Shown: in pieces, positions 1-59,171 of the stretch | Numbering within the stretch: position 1 is the first letter of the stretch | How the letters are laid out: every line of letters begins with the position of its first letter | Assembly: GCA_049643885.1 (NCBI GenBank) | Contig: JBARQV010000025.1 | Coordinates: 7,382-71,381, forward strand | From: Candidatus Omnitrophota bacterium | GTDB lineage: Bacteria; Omnitrophota; Gorgyraeia; Tantalellales; Tantalellaceae | DNA length: 64,000 bases | Reading direction: 5' to 3' | The notes under the pieces: generated by a model | Seen by the model: the letters and a program-made list of their open reading frames with translations, nothing else | Told to the model about the DNA's origin: nothing | The model's database searches: none | Made by a program: the position numbers and the translations under genes

Positions 1-387
1 TACTCGAGTGCTTTCTTGTGATCCGCGATGGCCTGAGCCAAATCCTTTTTTTCAGAGGCCTCGCCGATACGATATTCACTGTTTCCCGCGTTATAGATAG
101 CCTTCTCTTCAATACTCTCGTCTTCGCCGGCAAGGGATCTTAAAAAACCCTGTGAAGCCTCGTTGAACTTTTTTTTACGGTAAAGGGTAGCCGCCCGATT
201 ATACTGGATCTTCTGGTCGTCCGGTTTCTCGGTAAGGGCTTTGTCATACAGTTCAAGAGCTTTATCGTAATCTTTCTCTCTGTAGAACTTATTGGCCTTC
301 CTTGCGTCGCCGGCAGCGCCCGCCCGCGCTTCCCCGCAAACCAGCACCACTATCGCAACCGTTACGGCCAGAGACTTGAGTGCTAGA
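1..387 (-). CDS. TPR-repeat protein, BatC-like (continues past window start; start codon not identifiable)
   Basis: Minus-strand frame reads ...LKSLAVTVAIVVLVCGEARAGAAGDARKANKFYREKDYDKALELYDKALTEKPDDQKIQYNRAATLYRKKKFNEASQGF..., a signal-like hydrophobic stretch followed by TPR-like repeats. It sits directly downstream of batB in the Bat operon order. No in-frame ATG, GTG or TTG lies between the batB stop and the hydrophobic segment, so the 5' end is unresolved. Confidence 0.5.
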
Positions 388-538
388 TGTCTGGAGCTGT
401 TTGAAGCGGGGCGTAATTTTTCCGAGCGGCCATGGTTCCCGAAGGCCTTAAAGGCCTGAGGGAGAGCGAGGAAAAATTTCGAGTGAATTTTCCTCGGTGG
501 GGAAAATGAACGTCCCCGCGGAAAACAGCTCCAGACAT
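387..538. repeat. Palindromic MITE-like element, family D (copy D1, inverted relative to D2)
   Basis: Perfect terminal inverted repeat atgtctggagctgttt...aaacagctccagacat. The inner core is homologous to 4478-4571 in reverse orientation (ggacgttcattttcccc...cctcgctc...gctcggaaa). Confidence 0.6.
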
Positions 539-4415: not shown

Positions 4416-4449
4416 CCGACGTAAAAATCATCGTTTCAATAACTTATTT

Positions 4450-4598
4450 AAAATGTTTGTTCTGTTTCCAGCGGGGACGTCCAATTCCCCCCAGCGAGGG
4501 AATTGTACTCTAAAATTTCCTCGCTCGTCCTCGCTCCCGCTCGGACACCGTGCCCGCTCGGAAATTTAAAGCCCCGCTTACAACAAAACAAACATTTT
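4450..4598. repeat. Palindromic MITE-like element, family D (copy D2)
   Basis: Terminal inverted repeat aaaatgtttgttctgtttccagcgggg ... ccccgcttacaacaaaacaaacatttt. The core is homologous to D1 in inverted orientation, and a third partial copy lies at 29105-29162. Confidence 0.6.
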
Positions 4599-6019: not shown

Positions 6020-6165
6020 ACGTTCACTCCTTTTTTCATTTCACAGAAAGTATACCCTCAAGTACTTATCGTGTCAAATAGATAGGAAAAAAAATCAGAC
6101 GTCAGAGTGCGGAGCGAAGCGAAACCTCTCCGGAGGGAATTTCGGGTATGGGCAAGAACTACTTC

Positions 6166-6364
6166 CTGCAAAAACAATGAAATTAAAGGGTCCCATTCCA
6201 AATTTTAGGTATTTTTATAGCTTTTGAAGGAAAAAAGCGTAAAAGCTGTCCGAGCCCCGCTGCTTCGCCTTGCAAAGCAGCGGGGGCGAGTTCTTTTACG
6301 CCCTTCGAAAGTTAGAAAAATGCCGTTAAAAAATTTGGTGGGAAGAATTTCATTGTTTTTGCAG
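6166..6364. repeat. 199-bp long imperfect palindrome, family C (copy C1)
   Basis: Arms ctgcaaaaacaatgaaatt ... aatttcattgtttttgcag pair perfectly. Internal arms (gcgtaaaag / cttttacgc, ccaaatttt / aaaatttgg) also pair around a central hairpin cccgctgcttcgccttgcaaagcagcggg. A second copy lies at 29262-29479. Confidence 0.7.
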
Positions 6365-6427
6365 TAGATAACTCTCGCACTACTTATCGGCCCTGCGGGC
6401 TTAGGTCTCTACCTCTAGCTGTGCTTG

Positions 6428-14691: not shown

Positions 14692-14771
14692 TATAGTGCA
14701 GCATATTCCCTACCAGGGCCCCTCCGCCCGGTGTGGATCCTCCCTGTACGGGAACATACTGCACTATGCTC
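14692..14771. repeat. Palindromic REP/MITE-like element, family B (copy B1)
   Basis: atagtgcagcatattccc-taccagggcccctccgcccggtgtggatcctccctgtac-gggaacatactgcactat. The outer 18-20 bp are inverted repeats, and the core is shared with copies at 29163-29244 and, inverted, 28240-28386. Confidence 0.7.
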
Positions 14772-26822: not shown

Positions 26823-26874
26823 GTTTAACTCCTGCTTCGTCGTTCGTATTGCACATTACCCGCCAATTCAGAAG

Positions 26875-26973
26875 TATGTCATCCCGGACGAGCCCAAAGG
26901 GCTCGATCCGGGACCACATAATATTATTATATGATCCCGGGTCTCGGCCTGCGGCCTCGCCCGGGATAACACT
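26875..26973. repeat. REP/MITE-like element, family A (copy A1)
   Basis: tatgtcatcccggaCGAGCCCAAAGGGCTCGatccgggaccacataatattattatatgatcccgggtctcggcctgcggcctcgcccgggataacac. It has two hairpin modules and degenerate terminal inverted repeats (atgtcatcccgg / ccgggat.ac). Confidence 0.7.
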
Positions 26974-28072: not shown

Positions 28073-28239
28073 CGTACTACTCCTCCTTTTCTCTTCAATA
28101 TAGAGGTTACAATATTAATTGCATATATTATACATTATTGATATTTTTTATCAAGTTTTGAAAGAAAATGAGGGAAAATGGTGTCTATAAGTATGGGAGA
28201 AATTAGAAATTGGATAGTGGATCCGTCAGGGCGGGTGGC

Positions 28240-28386
28240 GCTACAGTGTCCGAGCACCGCACAAGCCAGTAGCGCGGAGGGGCCCTGGTAGAGAACATAC
28301 TGCAAGCTGAGGAGTGTGGTGTGTTCCCGTACAGGGAGGATCCACACCGGGCGGAGGGGCCCTGGTAGAGAACACACCACACTCCT
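28240..28386. repeat. Family B palindromic element, copy B3 (inverted orientation, partially duplicated)
   Basis: The core ggcggaggggccctggtagagaaca occurs twice (28265-28290 and 28350-28376) flanking gttcccgtacagggaggatccacaccgg, which is the reverse complement of the B1 and B2 core. The outer stem is a different sequence (ggagtgtggtgtgttccc / gagaacacaccacactcc) but still pairs. Confidence 0.65.
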
Positions 28387-28396
28387 AAACTTGTAA

Positions 28397-29062
28397 ATGG
28401 ATGTTAAATCTTGGATACATAATGGGGTCAATGTTATTTTTCCGGCAAGGTGCACGGTCTGCAAAACCGCTCCGGTTCCCTATCCCCTGCCGGTCTGCGA
28501 AAATTGCAAAAATTTCCTTCTTTCAGAAAAAATGCTGCCTTCCGTATCTTCCGCGTTACTTGTGGAAATATGGTCGTGCCTGCCGTATGAAGGGACGATC
28601 AGGGAATTTATTAAAAAATTCAAATACTCGGGACAAAGGCAGTTAACGAGTTTTTTCAGCGACCTGGTACGTCGATTTCTCAAGGAAAATAATATACCGA
28701 AAGAGGATATCGACCTTATCGTGCCTATACCTATCCACCTGGCCCGGCGCGTATCAAGAGGATATAACCAATCTGAGATCATAGCCAGGATCCTGTCAGA
28801 TCTCTTAAATGCCCCTTTCTCCAATAACGTTCTGATCAAAACAAAAAATACGCACCCACAGATCGGACTTTCAAGAAATAGCAGGATCAAAAATCTACGC
28901 GGTTCTTTCCGGGTACCGCGCCTGTCGCCGGTCATCGGGAAATCTGTAATGTTGGCAGATGACGTGGTAACGACCGGGGCTACCCTGGAGGCTTGCGCCG
29001 CGGAACTGCTCCGCGCCGGAGCCAAGGAGGTCCGCGCATTCACGCTCGCCCGCACATTGTAA
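28397..29062 (+). CDS. comF: ComF-family phosphoribosyltransferase-domain protein
   Basis: N-terminal CxxC-x-CxxC zinc ribbon (CTVCK...CENCKN) and a C-terminal PRTase motif VMLADDVVTTGATL. Confidence 0.8.
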   Translation: MDVKSWIHNGVNVIFPARCTVCKTAPVPYPLPVCENCKNFLLSEKMLPSVSSALLVEIWSCLPYEGTIREFIKKFKYSGQRQLTSFFSDLVRRFLKENNIPKEDIDLIVPIPIHLARRVSRGYNQSEIIARILSDLLNAPFSNNVLIKTKNTHPQIGLSRNSRIKNLRGSFRVPRLSPVIGKSVMLADDVVTTGATLEACAAELLRAGAKEVRAFTLARTL

Positions 29063-29104
29063 AGTATCAGAGTGTCAGAAAATATCCGATTCACCGTTGT
29101 TTTC

Positions 29105-29162
29105 TAAAATGTTTGTCCTGTTTTTACAGGGGACGTTCATTTCCTCCACCGAAGAAGTAAAG
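29105..29162. repeat. Family D element, truncated copy D3 (left arm and start of core only)
   Basis: taaaatgtttgtcctgtttttacaggggacgttcatttcctccaccgaag matches the D2 left arm and the start of its core. It is interrupted by the family B copy that follows. Confidence 0.5.
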
Positions 29163-29244
29163 ATTGCAGTGCAGCATATTCCCTACCAGGGCCCCTCCGC
29201 CCGGTGTGGATCCTCCCTGTACGGGAACATGCTGCACTGCGCAA
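29163..29244. repeat. Family B palindromic element, copy B2
   Basis: ttgcagtgcagcatattccctaccagggcccctccgcccggtgtggatcctccctgtacgggaacatgctgcactgcgcaa. The core is identical to B1 and the outer stem pairs. Confidence 0.7.
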
Positions 29245-29261
29245 CTTACATCCGAACTAAA

Positions 29262-29479
29262 AACAGCTCCACAAAAACAATAAAATCAAAGGGACCCATT
29301 GCCAAATTTTAGGTATTTTTATAACTTTTGAAGGAAAAAAGCGTAAAAGCTGTCCGAGCCCTTTTTGTTTTCTTCCGGAAGAAAACAAAAAGGTCGAGTT
29401 CTTTTACGCCCTTCGAAAGTTAGAAAAATACCGTTAAAAAATTTGGTTGGGAAGGTTTTATTGTTTTTGTGGAGCTGTT
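29262..29479. repeat. Family C long palindrome, copy C2
   Basis: Arms aacagctccacaaaaacaataaaa ... ttttattgtttttgtggagctgtt pair perfectly. The internal sequence is about 85% identical to C1, but the terminal arms and the central hairpin (ctttttgttttcttccggaagaaaacaaaaag) carry different sequences that keep the pairing. Confidence 0.7.
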
Positions 29480-29519
29480 TATTGCGCCAAAGAAGACGAG
29501 CGACGAACGACGACTAAGG

Positions 29520-30611
29520 CTAGCTCTTGCGGTTGATTTCCCAGGCGCCGATGAGGATGAAGAGGATGTTACTCAGCCAGGCGGCTACTACCGGGGGAAG
29601 AGCGCCGCCTTTACCCAGGGCCAGGCATATAGCCATAGTCGGCAGATACAACAAAGCCATGCCGATACCCTTGGCCATCCCGATAAGTGCGTTAGCGCGT
29701 CCTGATGTTATGCTGAACGGGACTCCGACCATGACCACTGCTATGGCAGCGAACGGAAAAGATAATTTATAGTTAAGATCGACAAGGAGGCGTCTCACAG
29801 CAGTGGGCGAGCTTCCCTTAAATATCTCAATATGCTTCCCGAGCTGCCCGTAGCTCATAAGCCGTGGGTCCCACTGGTTGGTGACAAAGTCATCCGGGGT
29901 TTCCGTTATCGGAAGTTTCTTGTTCTGATAGACCTCAGGTTCTCCTGTAAAATCCCCGTTCGTGTCCACGTTGAAGATCATGACGTCCGTACCGTACCAG
30001 AACCCGCCGTTCCGCCATTTCGCGAGCCTTGCGCTGATCTTTTTTGTGACGATACGGTTTTCGTCGTGTTTGTGGATGATCACGTTCTCCAAAGTCTTGT
30101 TCCTGGGAATATAAGACTTGGCGAAGATTATCTGGTTGTTTGCTCCGTACATCGCCAGATTCTTAACGACCGCGGCGCCTTCTCCTTCCTTCTCCAGTTC
30201 TTCCTGCCTGATCTGGCTGGCCTTCTCCATACTGGAAGGCACGAACTTGTCGTTCACTATGAGTGTGATCAGGCAAAAAACGAAAACTATCACTATTATC
30301 GGCCTTAGAAGCTTCCATATGCTCAGACCGCTCGTTATTGCCGCAGTTACCTCCTGGTTCTTGCTCAGATTATTAAACACGTATACGGAACTTAAAAGCG
30401 CCGCGAAGGGGACCATGTTCACGAAAGCGAAGGGAGCAAAATGAAAATAGAACATCAGGATGCTAACCAGGGGTATGTTTTTCTTGAAAATATCATCCAG
30501 GAACCCCAGGATATCCCCTATCACCCCGAGGACCATCAGGAGCGTTATGCAGAATAAAAACGCCGCGATAAAATCTTTGACGATATATTTTTCGAGTATC
30601 CTCATTTTCAA
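29520..30611 (-). CDS. lptG: LPS export ABC permease LptG (YjgP/YjgQ family)
   Basis: N-terminal MKMRILEKYIVKDF...LLMVLG, a periplasmic beta-jellyroll middle and C-terminal TMs. Confidence 0.8.
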   Translation of the reverse strand: MKMRILEKYIVKDFIAAFLFCITLLMVLGVIGDILGFLDDIFKKNIPLVSILMFYFHFAPFAFVNMVPFAALLSSVYVFNNLSKNQEVTAAITSGLSIWKLLRPIIVIVFVFCLITLIVNDKFVPSSMEKASQIRQEELEKEGEGAAVVKNLAMYGANNQIIFAKSYIPRNKTLENVIIHKHDENRIVTKKISARLAKWRNGGFWYGTDVMIFNVDTNGDFTGEPEVYQNKKLPITETPDDFVTNQWDPRLMSYGQLGKHIEIFKGSSPTAVRRLLVDLNYKLSFPFAAIAVVMVGVPFSITSGRANALIGMAKGIGMALLYLPTMAICLALGKGGALPPVVAAWLSNILFILIGAWEINRKS

Positions 30612-32725: not shown

Positions 32726-32797
32726 CCTTTATTCGTCGTTCGTGGTTAGTGGTTCCTTTTCGTTACGAATCACGAAAAACGAACGACGAACGACGAG
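32726..32797. repeat. Inverted-repeat element with CGACGAACGACGA arms (family E)
   Basis: ttcgtcgttcgtgg ... ttttcgt.gattcgta.acgaaaa ... cgaacgacgaacgacga forms nested hairpins between the ahcY stop and the pfkA start. Solo copies of the arm lie at 26835-26848 and 29496-29515. Confidence 0.5.
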
Positions 32798-34213
32798 TTA
32801 ATATCTGTAATGCTCCGGTTTATACGGACCTTTTACGGGCACACCGATATAGTCCGCCTGCTCTTTTGTAAGACTTGTGAGTTTTACTCCTATTTTCTCA
32901 AGATGAAGCCGAGCGACTTCCTCGTCAAGATCCTTGGGCAACCTGTAGACTTTCTTATCGTAATTCTCCCTGTTCTTCCAAAGATCTATCTGCGCCAAAA
33001 CCTGGTTTGTAAAAGAATTAGACATCACAAAGGAAGGATGTCCGGTCGCGCACCCCAGGTTGACTAGTCTTCCTTCGGCAAGCAGATATATCTCTTTCCC
33101 GTCGGGAAAAACATACTTATCTACCTGAGGTTTAATATTGATTTTCTTGATACCTTTAAAATTTTCAAGTTCCGCTACCTGTATCTCATTGTCGAAGTGT
33201 CCGATGTTGCATACGATCGCCTGGTCTTTCATTTTTTCCATATGCTTTACCCCGATGACACCTTTGTTGCCTGTAGCTGTGACATATATGTCCGCTGTCC
33301 CAAGCGTATCTTCAACGGTAGTCACCTCATACCCTTCCATTGCGGCCTGCAAAGCACATATCGGGTCTATTTCGGTTACGATCACGCGAGCTCCAAGGCT
33401 TCTGAGCGACTGCGCGGAGCCTTTCCCCACGTCTCCGTACCCGCAAACGACCGCCACTTTACCCGCAAGCATCACATCCATGGACCTTTTAAGCCCGTCC
33501 ACCAGGGACTCACGGCAACCATAAAGATTGTCGAATTTGGATTTTGTCACGGAATCATTAACATTGATCGCGGGGACAAGCAGGTCGCCATTCTTCATCA
33601 TGCGGTAAAGACGGTTGACTCCGGTCGTGGTCTCCTCCGAGACGCCTTTCCAGTCCTTGACCATATTTGTCCACTTGGAAGGATCCTGCTTGAGGGTATT
33701 TTTCAGCGTTTTAATAAGAGCGGCTTCATCCTCTCCACCGGGTTCCTTGTCCAGGACCAGAGGGTCCTTTTCGGCGCTGGCACCGAGATGAAGCATGAGC
33801 GTTGCGTCCCCACCGTCATCGACTACCAGATTAGGACCTTTACCTCCGGGAAAAGTTAGTGCCTTTTCAGTGCACCACCAGTATTCTTCCAGTGTCTCCC
33901 CTTTCCAGGCGAAAACCGGGATCCCCGCCTTGGCCATGGCCGCCGCGGCATGATCCTGGGTGGAAAAGATGTTACAACTGGCCCATCTCACATCGGCCCC
34001 CAACTGCACAAGGGTCTCTATAAGAACGGCCGTCTGAATGGTCATATGCAATGACCCCGTTATCCTGGCGCCCGCGAGAGGTTTGTCTTTGGCGTGCTTT
34101 TGCCGAATGGCCATCAAACCCGGCATTTCGTGTTCCGCTATCGCGATCTCTTTTATGCCAAGTTCCGCTAACCCTATATCTCTGATCTTGTAGTCATCGG
34201 TCTTTATCACCAT
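32798..34213 (-). CDS. ahcY: Adenosylhomocysteinase
   Basis: [37 protein letters not shown] at the N-terminus, and the NAD-binding site [12 protein letters not shown]. Start set to the internal Met at 34213, which has GGAGGAAGT-ATG upstream. Confidence 0.9.
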
Positions 34214-47474: not shown

Positions 47475-47500
47475 GATAACTCCCTTTAAGTCGGTATTTG

Positions 47501-47600
47501 TATGTCATCCCGGACCCGCCGAAGGCGGGATCCGGGACCAAATAATATTGTTATATGATCCCGGGTCTCGGCCTGAGGCCTCGCCCGGGATGACATATTG
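47501..47600. repeat. Family A REP/MITE-like element (copy A2, complete with terminal inverted repeats)
   Basis: tatgtcatcccggaCCCGCCGAAGGCGGGatccgggaccaaataatattgttatatgatcccgggtctcggcctgaggcctcgcccgggatgacatattg. The ends caatatgtcatcccgg / ccgggatgacatattg are perfect TIRs. Confidence 0.75.
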
Positions 47601-50619: not shown

Positions 50620-50624
50620 AATAA

Positions 50625-50667
50625 TATGTCATCCCGGAATTCGCCGAAGGCGAATATCCGGGATCAA
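50625..50667. repeat. Family A element, half copy (A3)
   Basis: tatgtcatcccggaATTCGCCGAAGGCGAATatccgggatcaa. It lies in the 44-nt gap between the DUF1704 and ATP-grasp genes and starts 5 nt from the ATP-grasp ATG. Confidence 0.65.
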
Positions 50668-51764
50668 TTAACAATAAACCCCGGCAAGTACTTCGGCGGC
50701 TTCAAGATACCCTCGTCGAGCAGCTTCTTTACAATGCCGACATCTCTCAGGCCGATCTTGCCTATATAAAGAATACTTAAATTTCCTCGATTTTCAACAT
50801 ATCGCCGCATTTTAGGCCACCCGCTGATATAGTGGTAATCGCGGGGGAAACCACCCGGGTTAGATGTGTCCTCGATCCCCCTCTTCGCCCTTTCAGCCAG
50901 CCTGTAGGCCAGGTAATCCGGAAAAAACTCTCTGAGGGCCAGGAACATATCGTAAAACGAGACCTTGAGGCAAAGATCCGCCGCGAGTGTCCTTCCCGCG
51001 TAAAGCTTCATCTGCCGGGTGTCCGTCTCCAGGCACCCCGCCTTCTCTTCAGCAAGAATGGCCAGCCCTTCTTCCGTCTCATCATACCCGGCGAGCCCGT
51101 CCCGGAATATCTTGTAAGGCTGCTCTTCTCCGTTGATACCCCTGTAGACGTGCACCTCGATCTCGTGGACCTTCAACCTTTCGACTTCTTCTTTAGTGTA
51201 ATTGATGGCCGAATTTATATAGACCGTCCTGTCCTTTGATGAAACGGTGATCTTGGGAACGATCTTTCTGCTCAGGACGACTTCCCATCCGATGCCTTTT
51301 TCTTCCAGTCCCTTCCGCAGGACGGAAGCCATCTCCTCCGGCGGCACCGTTTCTTCGGGAAACTCGTATCGCCTTTCCCTGCTCTCTGAAAGGACATTCC
51401 CTGCGATGTCCAGGCATTCTCCGTCCGGCGCGCCGTACAACCTTACCGCGTTCACGGCGAACTGCGGATCGGTGCATTTGATGAGTTCCAGCTGCTCTTG
51501 TATAAAAACGATCTTGTCGATAAAGAGCCTGTGAATATCGTTGCTTTCGTCAAGGGCGTCCCTGGTCTCGCGAAGCCACCTTTCCTGGTAAAAGAACTCG
51601 ACGTCCTTATACTTGTAGACCGGATTATAACGGGCGCCCTTCTTGAAATTCGAAAAGAATTTCTCCTTTTCCTCTTTCTGGTTCAAAGGGGTCAGGTAAG
51701 AATAAAAATCGACCTCTCGCATGATCTCGCTTATGCGATTATCTATCCCGTGCAAATTTATCAT
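50664..51764 (-). CDS. DUF1704/MATCAP-like metallocarboxypeptidase-fold protein (QEGLA-motif family)
   Basis: An HExxxH-type motif (KVHEIEVHVY) and the family's signature ETEEGLAIL (QEGLA-type). Size is about 366 aa. Confidence 0.65.
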   Translation of the reverse strand: MINLHGIDNRISEIMREVDFYSYLTPLNQKEEKEKFFSNFKKGARYNPVYKYKDVEFFYQERWLRETRDALDESNDIHRLFIDKIVFIQEQLELIKCTDPQFAVNAVRLYGAPDGECLDIAGNVLSESRERRYEFPEETVPPEEMASVLRKGLEEKGIGWEVVLSRKIVPKITVSSKDRTVYINSAINYTKEEVERLKVHEIEVHVYRGINGEEQPYKIFRDGLAGYDETEEGLAILAEEKAGCLETDTRQMKLYAGRTLAADLCLKVSFYDMFLALREFFPDYLAYRLAERAKRGIEDTSNPGGFPRDYHYISGWPKMRRYVENRGNLSILYIGKIGLRDVGIVKKLLDEGILKPPKYLPGFIVN

Positions 51765-58422: not shown

Positions 58423-58464
58423 TACAACTCCTCTCTATGTTCATCGATCGTATATCGTCGGTCG

Positions 58465-58588
58465 TATGTCATCCCGGAATTCGCCGAAATAGAAATATGT
58501 CATCCCGGAAATCCTGAGCGAAGCGAAGGATTATCCGGGACCACATAATAATTTTATTTGATCCCCGCTTTCGCGGGGATGACATATT
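58465..58588. repeat. Family A element, composite copy A4 (half module plus complete element)
   Basis: tatgtcatcccggaattcgccgaaatagaa, a truncated module matching A3, is followed by a full element atatgtcatcccggaAATCCTGAGCGAAGCGAAGGATTatccgggaccacataataattttatttgatccccgctttcgcggggatgacatattg. Confidence 0.7.
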
Positions 58589-59131: not shown

Positions 59132-59171
59132 ATATGTCATCCCGGACGGCCATTAGGCCGATCCGGGATCA
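59132..59171. repeat. Family A element, half copy A5
   Basis: atatgtcatcccggaCGGCCATTAGGCCGatccgggatcaaataata fills the 38-nt alpha-beta intergenic space. It begins 2 nt from the beta-subunit ATG and overlaps the last 3 codons of the alpha subunit. Confidence 0.65.

Follow-up and report, generated by a model that had tools for sequence, protein, structure and literature searches.

Stacked palindromic repeats between comF and lptG of an uncultivated Omnitrophota bacterium: a probable mosaic of non-autonomous, hairpin-forming DNA elements

REP elements occur singly or in mosaic clusters together with other motifs, REP clusters being termed BIMEs, and HUH/Y1 transposases treat REP elements as well as the ends of IS200/IS605 as folded DNA. 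Long DNA palindromes are unstable, being subject to slipped-strand deletion between short direct repeats and to hairpin cleavage by SbcCD. In Enterobacteria and Pseudomonas, REP and REPIN elements are mobilised by RAYT (Y1/HUH) transposases (PMC3337134, PMC3733652), a REP being an imperfect palindrome of 20-40 nt which is tagged at one end with GTAG or CGTC (PMC3733652). Bacterial MITEs, e.g. Correia/NEMIS, ERIC and RUP (PMC10969869; PMC3184786; PMC2229807), are defined by conserved terminal inverted repeats common to the parent IS and by direct target-site duplications (PMC10969869), and Rickettsia palindromic elements (RPEs) enter protein-coding genes and leave the reading frame intact (PMC10969869, section 4.2).

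Here, we analysed a stretch of 64,000 nt (64 kb, hereafter the window) from an uncultivated member of Candidatus Omnitrophota and compared the repeats of one intergenic spacer with these systems. The spacer follows the gene of a ComF-like protein (28397-29062, plus strand), whose best named relatives are from Omnitrophota MAGs. It is filled, in this order, by a truncated copy of a repeat family D, a complete hairpin of family B and a complete 220-nt palindrome of family C:

29063-29519, comF/lptG spacer, 457 nt, between convergent genes
29100-29156, plus strand, D3, truncated copy with the left terminal arm and the first part of the core, matching D2 and D1
29157-29249, plus strand, B3, complete hairpin; main stem 29165-29241, apical module GGGCCCCTCCGCCCGGTGTGGATCCTCCC at 29189-29217
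29261-29480, plus strand, C2, complete long palindrome; outer arms 29261-29272 and 29469-29480, tip hairpin 29360-29393
29493-29513, plus strand, short repeat of CGACGAACGACGA type at the lptG end of the spacer, 90% match to 32776-32796
29520-30611, minus strand, lptG (the name used here), lptF/lptG-family permease gene, convergent with comF

An earlier note on this DNA had described three palindromic units in this order and had read them as nested insertions; the order and the extents of the units held to within a few bases. The same spacer is found in five contigs (four NCBI MAG assemblies and one ENA assembly) at 99.8-100% identity, and since the layout is identical in five separately deposited contigs, a one-off assembly product is ruled out. 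Its D-B part is additionally present in two metagenome contigs (L006, L007) of a relative with 93% identity in ComF. Repeats of the CGACGAACGACGA type occupy three window sites (29493-29513, 32728-32801 and 26825-26850), the one at 32728-32801 being an inverted pair.

Each of the three families has further copies elsewhere in the window:

387-538, minus strand, D1, full-length D element
4444-4598, plus strand, D2, full-length D element
6152-6378, plus strand, C1, a further copy of C without a neighbouring B; its tip and its outer arms are unlike those of C2
14695-14765, plus strand, B1, second B copy, alone, with neither C nor D beside it
28274-28393, minus strand, B2, complete copy with an adjoining half copy; hairpin 28303-28393, half copy 28274-28304

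From these copies, family membership could be established for all three units. Over 71 nt (29168-29238) B3 is 99% identical to B1 (14695-14765) at an unrelated locus, and it is 88% identical to B2 (28301-28383, opposite strand), where the differences in the outer stem are compensated. The fold of B3 (-46 kcal/mol, z = -6.9) is extended at its foot by pairing of GTAAAG (29157-29162) with CTTAC (29245-29249). C2 spans 220 nt with 25-nt perfect outer arms, reaches -74 kcal/mol (z = -14.3) when folded as DNA and is 85% identical to C1 over 200 nt (E 4e-57). D3 aligns with D2 over 43 nt at 81% (E 4e-6) and with D1, on the minus strand, over 39 nt at 82% (E 5e-5). The right arm of D is indeed missing: of the ~150 nt of a full D element, D3 corresponds only to the left ~55 nt, and the right ~95 nt are absent. 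We additionally noticed a further palindromic family in the window, of TATGTCATCCCGGA...TCCGGGATGACATA type, which is unrelated to B, C and D:

26875-26971, 47500-47597, 50623-50676, 58464-58573 and 59132-59155, copies of TATGTCATCCCGGA...TCCGGGATGACATA type

The comF/lptG junction of more distant relatives is far shorter. The gap measures 2 nt in L124 (ComF 71% identical) and 12 nt in L126 (62%), and the 150-nt spacer of L009 (58%) contains repeats unrelated to D, B and C; no similarity to any of the three families was detected at the comF/lptG loci of these three relatives. Relative to them, the spacer elements are insertions, and the junction seems to have had almost no spacer originally. 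Repeats of this kind lengthen the DNA between genes from a handful of bases to hundreds. Two further loci were set aside. In L008, a 61% relative considered as an empty site, the contig end (L008:10957-11011) is the reverse complement of the 3' end of comF on the same contig, probably a fold-back assembly artefact, which makes this comF locus unusable as an empty site; in L125, comF is truncated and the downstream DNA is unrelated.

Upstream of comF, L008, L126 and L124 have a gene for DoxX that separates comF from the ferredoxin gene. No DoxX gene is found anywhere in the window, where B2 and the half-B copy, broken inside the apical module, occupy the corresponding position (28073-28396). 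B2 is also present in L006 and L007, and a 66-nt indel separates the 93% relative (L006:1-125, L007:1-126) from the window (28365-28420) between B2 and the comF start codon. As both contigs start inside B2, assemblies evidently break at this repeat; in all, several contigs end inside B or C.

Copies of B number dozens per genome. A 20-mer from its tip, CCTCCGCCCGGTGTGGATCC, is found in at least 114 stretches of GTDB species-representative genomes; among the matches listed nearly all are from Omnitrophota MAGs, many of them with many copies, and a few records bear the names Planctomycetia, Deltaproteobacteria or Bdellovibrionota. No match to the B core was obtained in a scan of viral contigs. 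The 148 ORFs neighbouring B fall into 218 unrelated Pfam families and represent unrelated housekeeping genes, with no enrichment of transposases or mobile elements among them. Beyond intergenic sites, B-family hairpins lie in frame within rimO, the gene of the CCA-adding enzyme and cobQ of other Omnitrophota MAGs, several of these intragenic copies being located in high-GC MAGs with Pfam domains on both sides. In rimO of L048 (L048:4730-5060), ~43 extra residues, as measured against T. maritima RimO (PDB 4jc0), are placed between the UPF0004 and radical-SAM domains. The closest homologue (P0122, from L128) is 79% identical (442 vs 489 residues) and lacks the insert, and the DNA alignment of both genes delimits an insert of 126 nt (42 codons) which contains B, a partial B arm adjoining the complete one. 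A clear target duplication is not visible at this insertion, where the empty allele is only 79% identical at protein level. The CCA-adding enzyme gene (L020:916-2481) has ~28 extra residues at the B position compared to PDB 3wfo, and in cobQ (L062:3535-5172) the B core forms residues 275-281, between one Pfam domain ending at 236 and the next starting at 298. Five different reading frames of B are used among the host genes, and by inspection the invariant core is stop-free in all six frames. These repeats add peptide segments to conserved enzymes. Other Omnitrophota RimO proteins (P0124, P0125, P0139, P0160, P0182 and others) display different extra segments in the same linker, and a second RimO insertion site is located just upstream of the C-terminal TRAM_2 domain, e.g. 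AVRPEQAV...LRMNGASKD; further repeat families probably invade Omnitrophota rimO genes too.

These comparisons show B to be mobile DNA which spreads to unrelated loci including coding sequences, in which it keeps the frame. The proposal that the repeats are or were mobile is borne out by the insertions relative to relatives, by the 99% identity of B1 and B3 and by the rimO insert, and the proposal that they accumulate at the same kind of site by the contrast between the filled spacer and the gaps of 2 nt (L124), 12 nt (L126) and 150 unrelated nt (L009). We propose, with a probability of roughly 0.6, that the spacer was built up as a mosaic from non-autonomous DNA repeats which form hairpins and are spread by an enzyme encoded elsewhere. 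Encoded at another place in the genome, this enzyme would make the copies and would recognise the invariant tip of B together with its internal loops (TAC/TAC, CCCC/TCCT), either in single-stranded DNA that has folded or in a cruciform. New copies would land preferentially in or beside existing hairpins, and such landing would lead to pile-ups, copy-specific outer arms and truncated copies alongside, among them D3 and the half-B at 28274. B3 and C2 may have arrived together, or B may have attracted C, while D3 would be an older copy whose right part was lost by deletion or recombination at the junction; palindrome-driven deletions would then erode the copies. Neither a target-site duplication nor a closely related empty site was found for any of the three units at this locus, so that order and mode of arrival are inferred.

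Literal nesting, closest to the earlier note, would instead place a complete D element 3' of comF, into which B and C inserted independently, in either order, the displaced part of D being lost later. We consider this rather unlikely. The similarity of D3 to its relatives does stop at 29156/29157, exactly at the foot of the extended B3 hairpin, which speaks for nesting. However, the missing right part of D was found neither after B3 nor after C2. The sole trace from this search is an 11-mer, AAACAGCTCCA, common to the D1 arm (p about 0.001-0.002 for a single comparison), and complementarity to the left arm of D3 itself is not significant (p = 0.12). The outer arms of C2 (29261-29272, 29469-29480) share this 11-mer, as AAACAGCTCCA/TGGAGCTGTTT, with the terminal arms of D1 (387-411, 514-538), its position relative to the element centre being opposite in C2 and D1. 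No direct target-site duplications flank B3 or C2; at the flanks of B1, B2, B3 and C2 the palindrome continues in place of direct repeats. The interruption of D by the later arrivals could therefore not be substantiated.

That one small element can sit inside another is seen directly in other Omnitrophota DNA: the left arm of C in L025 contains a 64-nt element (AAACCGTGC...GCCAGG, L025:874-937), which is lacking in its paralogue L051. The same 64-nt element occurs in L123 (2912-2965), just beyond the right arm of C. Truncated copies abutting complete ones also recur, as in the half-B (28274-28304) that directly adjoins B2 with its break inside the apical module and in the partial B arm in rimO, and both observations speak for nesting as a process in these genomes. 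Two independent arrivals of B and C are nevertheless contradicted by three other Omnitrophota loci (L051, L025, L123), at which B again precedes C with the orientation unchanged. There, B and C are 20-110 nt apart and the alignments of B plus C extend over ~300-370 nt; L051 and L025, two loci of one MAG, align for ~370 nt across B, a short hairpin and C. When a profile of C was run over ~820 kb of Omnitrophota DNA, C-like sequence turned up at only three loci outside the window, in all cases 60-110 nt downstream of B and oriented as in the window. This statistic is soft, since the loci had been fetched for containing B and two of them are paralogous, but with loci of 2-8 kb in length the position of C within each was still counted as telling. 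A scan of metagenomes with a degenerate C-arm pattern gave one extra copy only (L127), too near its contig end to show a preceding B. The unbiased 64-kb window contains one C copy with B beside it and one without.

B then C at three loci gives B+C the appearance of a recurrent composite, and with such pairing a stack of repeats is no proof of serial nesting. The three independent layers of the earlier note are accordingly not upheld. Co-occurrence as one composite element, which that note had named as an outcome speaking against nesting, applies in part to B and C but not to D, and B1 and C1 stand alone in the window. All three are multi-copy families represented in other Omnitrophota genera as well. 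D-like elements are known from another genus (L122, L057), and D is found beside B only at this locus and in its 93% relative. At L024:2532 and L107:6670 (compared with L034:3740-3930), hybrid joints connect the inner part of a D-type variant with B's right half at a GCCCCTCCG common to both, which suggests recombination between the two families.

The comparison of relatives, asked for to separate the layers, showed no empty or intermediate site, which again does not favour nesting: the 93% relative already carries D3, B3 and C. In L006 and L007, D3, B3 and the first 47 nt of C2 are followed directly by the lptG side. The retained piece of C2 holds sequence that is conserved in C at three unrelated loci (C1, C2, L127), so L006 represents a deletion derivative of a complete C and not an empty site. 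The missing segment is bounded by short direct repeats:

29301-29306 and 29486-29491, GCCAAA direct repeats bounding the 185 nt missing in L006

The left GCCAAA is located in the left arm of C2 and the right one just past its right end. A 185-nt deletion between these 6-nt repeats removed most of the C palindrome in the L006 lineage. With D3, B3 and a remnant of C present in the 93% relative, the D3-B3-C2 arrangement predates the split of both lineages.

A second alternative concerns the nature of the elements more than their stacking. B, perhaps together with C and D, could constitute an undescribed class of hairpin elements recognised by an apical module that is invariant throughout the phylum; we regard this as doubtful. 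Whatever the reading, B is built from a 29-nt apical module, GGGCCCCTCCGCCCGGTGTGGATCCTCCC, which does not vary, and a stem of about 23 bp with strong covariation; two internal loops (TAC opposite TAC, CCCC opposite TCCT) are conserved too. Its size is 77-93 nt and the median hairpin length 79 nt. The full 29-mer is exact in 113 of the 138 B copies among the matches listed and has at least two mismatches in only 9, where 20 of its positions are conserved by the design of the search and the 9 flanking core bases lay outside the searched 20-mer. When 55 copies are aligned without gaps, pairing holds in 93% of cells, compared with 37-50% when the partner is slid; 22 of the 23 outer-stem pairs change on both sides, and the observed covariation score was reached by none of 500 shuffles. 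An invariant tip on a covarying stem makes B a test case for phylogenetic profiling of the recognising enzyme. The B core sequence had no match in the literature searched, and no relevant paper on repeat elements of Omnitrophota was found. Copying in such a class would proceed without conserved ends or direct target duplications, candidate routes being insertion at existing hairpin tips and fold-back synthesis that templates the outer arms. If this class were real, the element would be benign enough to be accepted in linkers of essential genes in any reading frame. Counting against the mosaic of mobile repeats proposed above, a core that is invariant throughout the phylum would also be compatible with host selection for a functional RNA or a protein-binding site.

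The C family likewise joins conserved parts to variable ones. All six copies (C1, C2, L127, L051, L025 and L123) have their own near-perfect outer palindrome of 10-23 bp; these extensions sit beyond the conserved arms, and the palindromic tip is copy-specific as well. In L004, which belongs to the same population with 99.8% identical flanks, a different palindrome replaces the tip of C2. This replacement tip (L004:10935-11000, compared with window 29331-29393) resembles the tip of C1, and the swap could be due to gene conversion between C copies or to an assembly chimera. Near-perfect outer arms and a replaceable tip are unexplained by ordinary cut-and-paste or copy-and-paste transposition; insertion at the palindrome centre or fold-back synthesis fits the arms and tips of C better than standard transposition.

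The hairpins might also be functional RNAs or cis-acting transcript elements kept by selection and not spread as selfish DNA, in the form of small RNA genes, stabilisers of mRNA 3' ends or bidirectional terminators between convergent genes. The location between convergent genes would be in line with this, as would the covarying B stem with its invariant apical module and conserved internal loops, and the cores of C and D, which are conserved across genera with variable segments that remain paired. We nevertheless judge it quite improbable, since the behaviour of B points to DNA. With respect to the neighbouring genes it has no preferred orientation (24, 21, 15 and 11), and its stems (1966 Watson-Crick, 117 G-T and 172 A-C pairs) contain few G-T pairs, not more than A-C, which favours neither strand as RNA. 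B therefore acts at the DNA level, alike in either orientation. Searches against Rfam 15 with gathering and permissive thresholds, covering the window and six other loci, revealed nothing relevant: only tRNAs pass thresholds in the window, and B, C and D match only generic hairpin (miRNA-precursor) models far below threshold. The promoter consensus scan of the spacer gave one weak promoter-like site against 0.5 expected, and the terminator scan of 28900-29700 no terminator-like site; motifs resembling TTTACR-N16-18-TATAAA, spotted by eye in the C arms, were dropped as they failed the consensus test. T residues are not enriched after B hairpins (98 copies), and the GC-rich hairpin with T tract of an intrinsic terminator is seen neither at the spacer nor at the B copies. 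Dozens of copies per genome, near-identical at unrelated loci and translated in five frames, are likewise hard to reconcile with a conserved RNA.

In a further alternative, which we judge very improbable, fold-back (hairpin-primed) synthesis would enlarge the palindromes, or new elements would enter exactly at the centre of an existing one, with outer arms templated or supplied by the local flank and the stack being a palindrome inside a palindrome instead of a series of classical insertions. The differing outer extensions of the six C copies would agree with it, as would the B copies at the centre of longer copy-specific palindromes in other MAGs and the breaks of truncated B copies, which fall within or beside the apical module. 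Against it, the stems of B within one genome resemble one another less and less towards the outside, a pattern that descent with compensatory change explains better than arms taken from the target. The outer arms of D are moreover conserved between copies within one MAG, even though D1 and D2 differ.

We therefore return to the mosaic of non-autonomous repeats and to the systems it resembles. Like REP and REPIN elements, the Omnitrophota repeats are short, do not code for protein, fold into hairpins and are present in many copies. An enzyme whose gene lies elsewhere probably recognises them in folded form as DNA, and they occur singly or in mosaic clusters in intergenic regions, often between convergent genes. 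B differs in its size of 77-93 nt compared with 20-40 nt, in the absence of the terminal GTAG/CGTC tag, no conserved tetranucleotide being found at either foot of the hairpin, and in being conserved at the tip and not in the stem. Its core is identical across the phylum, whereas REPs are specific to a species or a RAYT, and it also resides within genes (rimO, CCA-adding enzyme, cobQ), whereas REPs are extragenic. A RAYT gene was not found in 820 kb: tblastn of the window and the other loci with two approximate Y1 transposase sequences gave no match, which is a weak test for Y1/RAYT. An inverted pair of B copies 490 nt apart in L034 encloses no transposase ORF.

With MITEs, the elements share small size, palindromic arms, high copy number, lack of coding capacity, location among unrelated genes and occasional in-frame placement in ORFs; B (77-93 nt), D (~150 nt) and C (~220 nt) are all short, non-coding, multi-copy and without a transposase of their own. 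The conserved terminal inverted repeats of MITEs are, however, replaced here by variable ends in B and in all six C copies, no direct duplications were seen at B1, B2, B3 or C2, and no parent IS was seen for B, C or D in the 820 kb. By described behaviour, B is also reminiscent of RPEs, since it lies in frame in genes and adds ~30-45 residues to linkers of housekeeping enzymes. The organisms are unrelated, though, and the elements at the comF/lptG locus are intergenic, so that in-frame insertion into genes is a trait of B in other MAGs and not of the three units in the window. The instability of long palindromes, finally, has its counterpart in the 185-nt loss in L006 exactly between the GCCAAA repeats and in the breakpoints of truncated B copies at the hairpin tip, and accounts for the erosion of the elements but not for their origin or spread. 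Since the defining features of MITEs and REPs are only partly present, the elements are to be placed as small palindromic repeats outside the named families, and are best read as non-autonomous palindromic mobile repeats which act at the DNA level in a REP-, MITE- or RPE-like manner.
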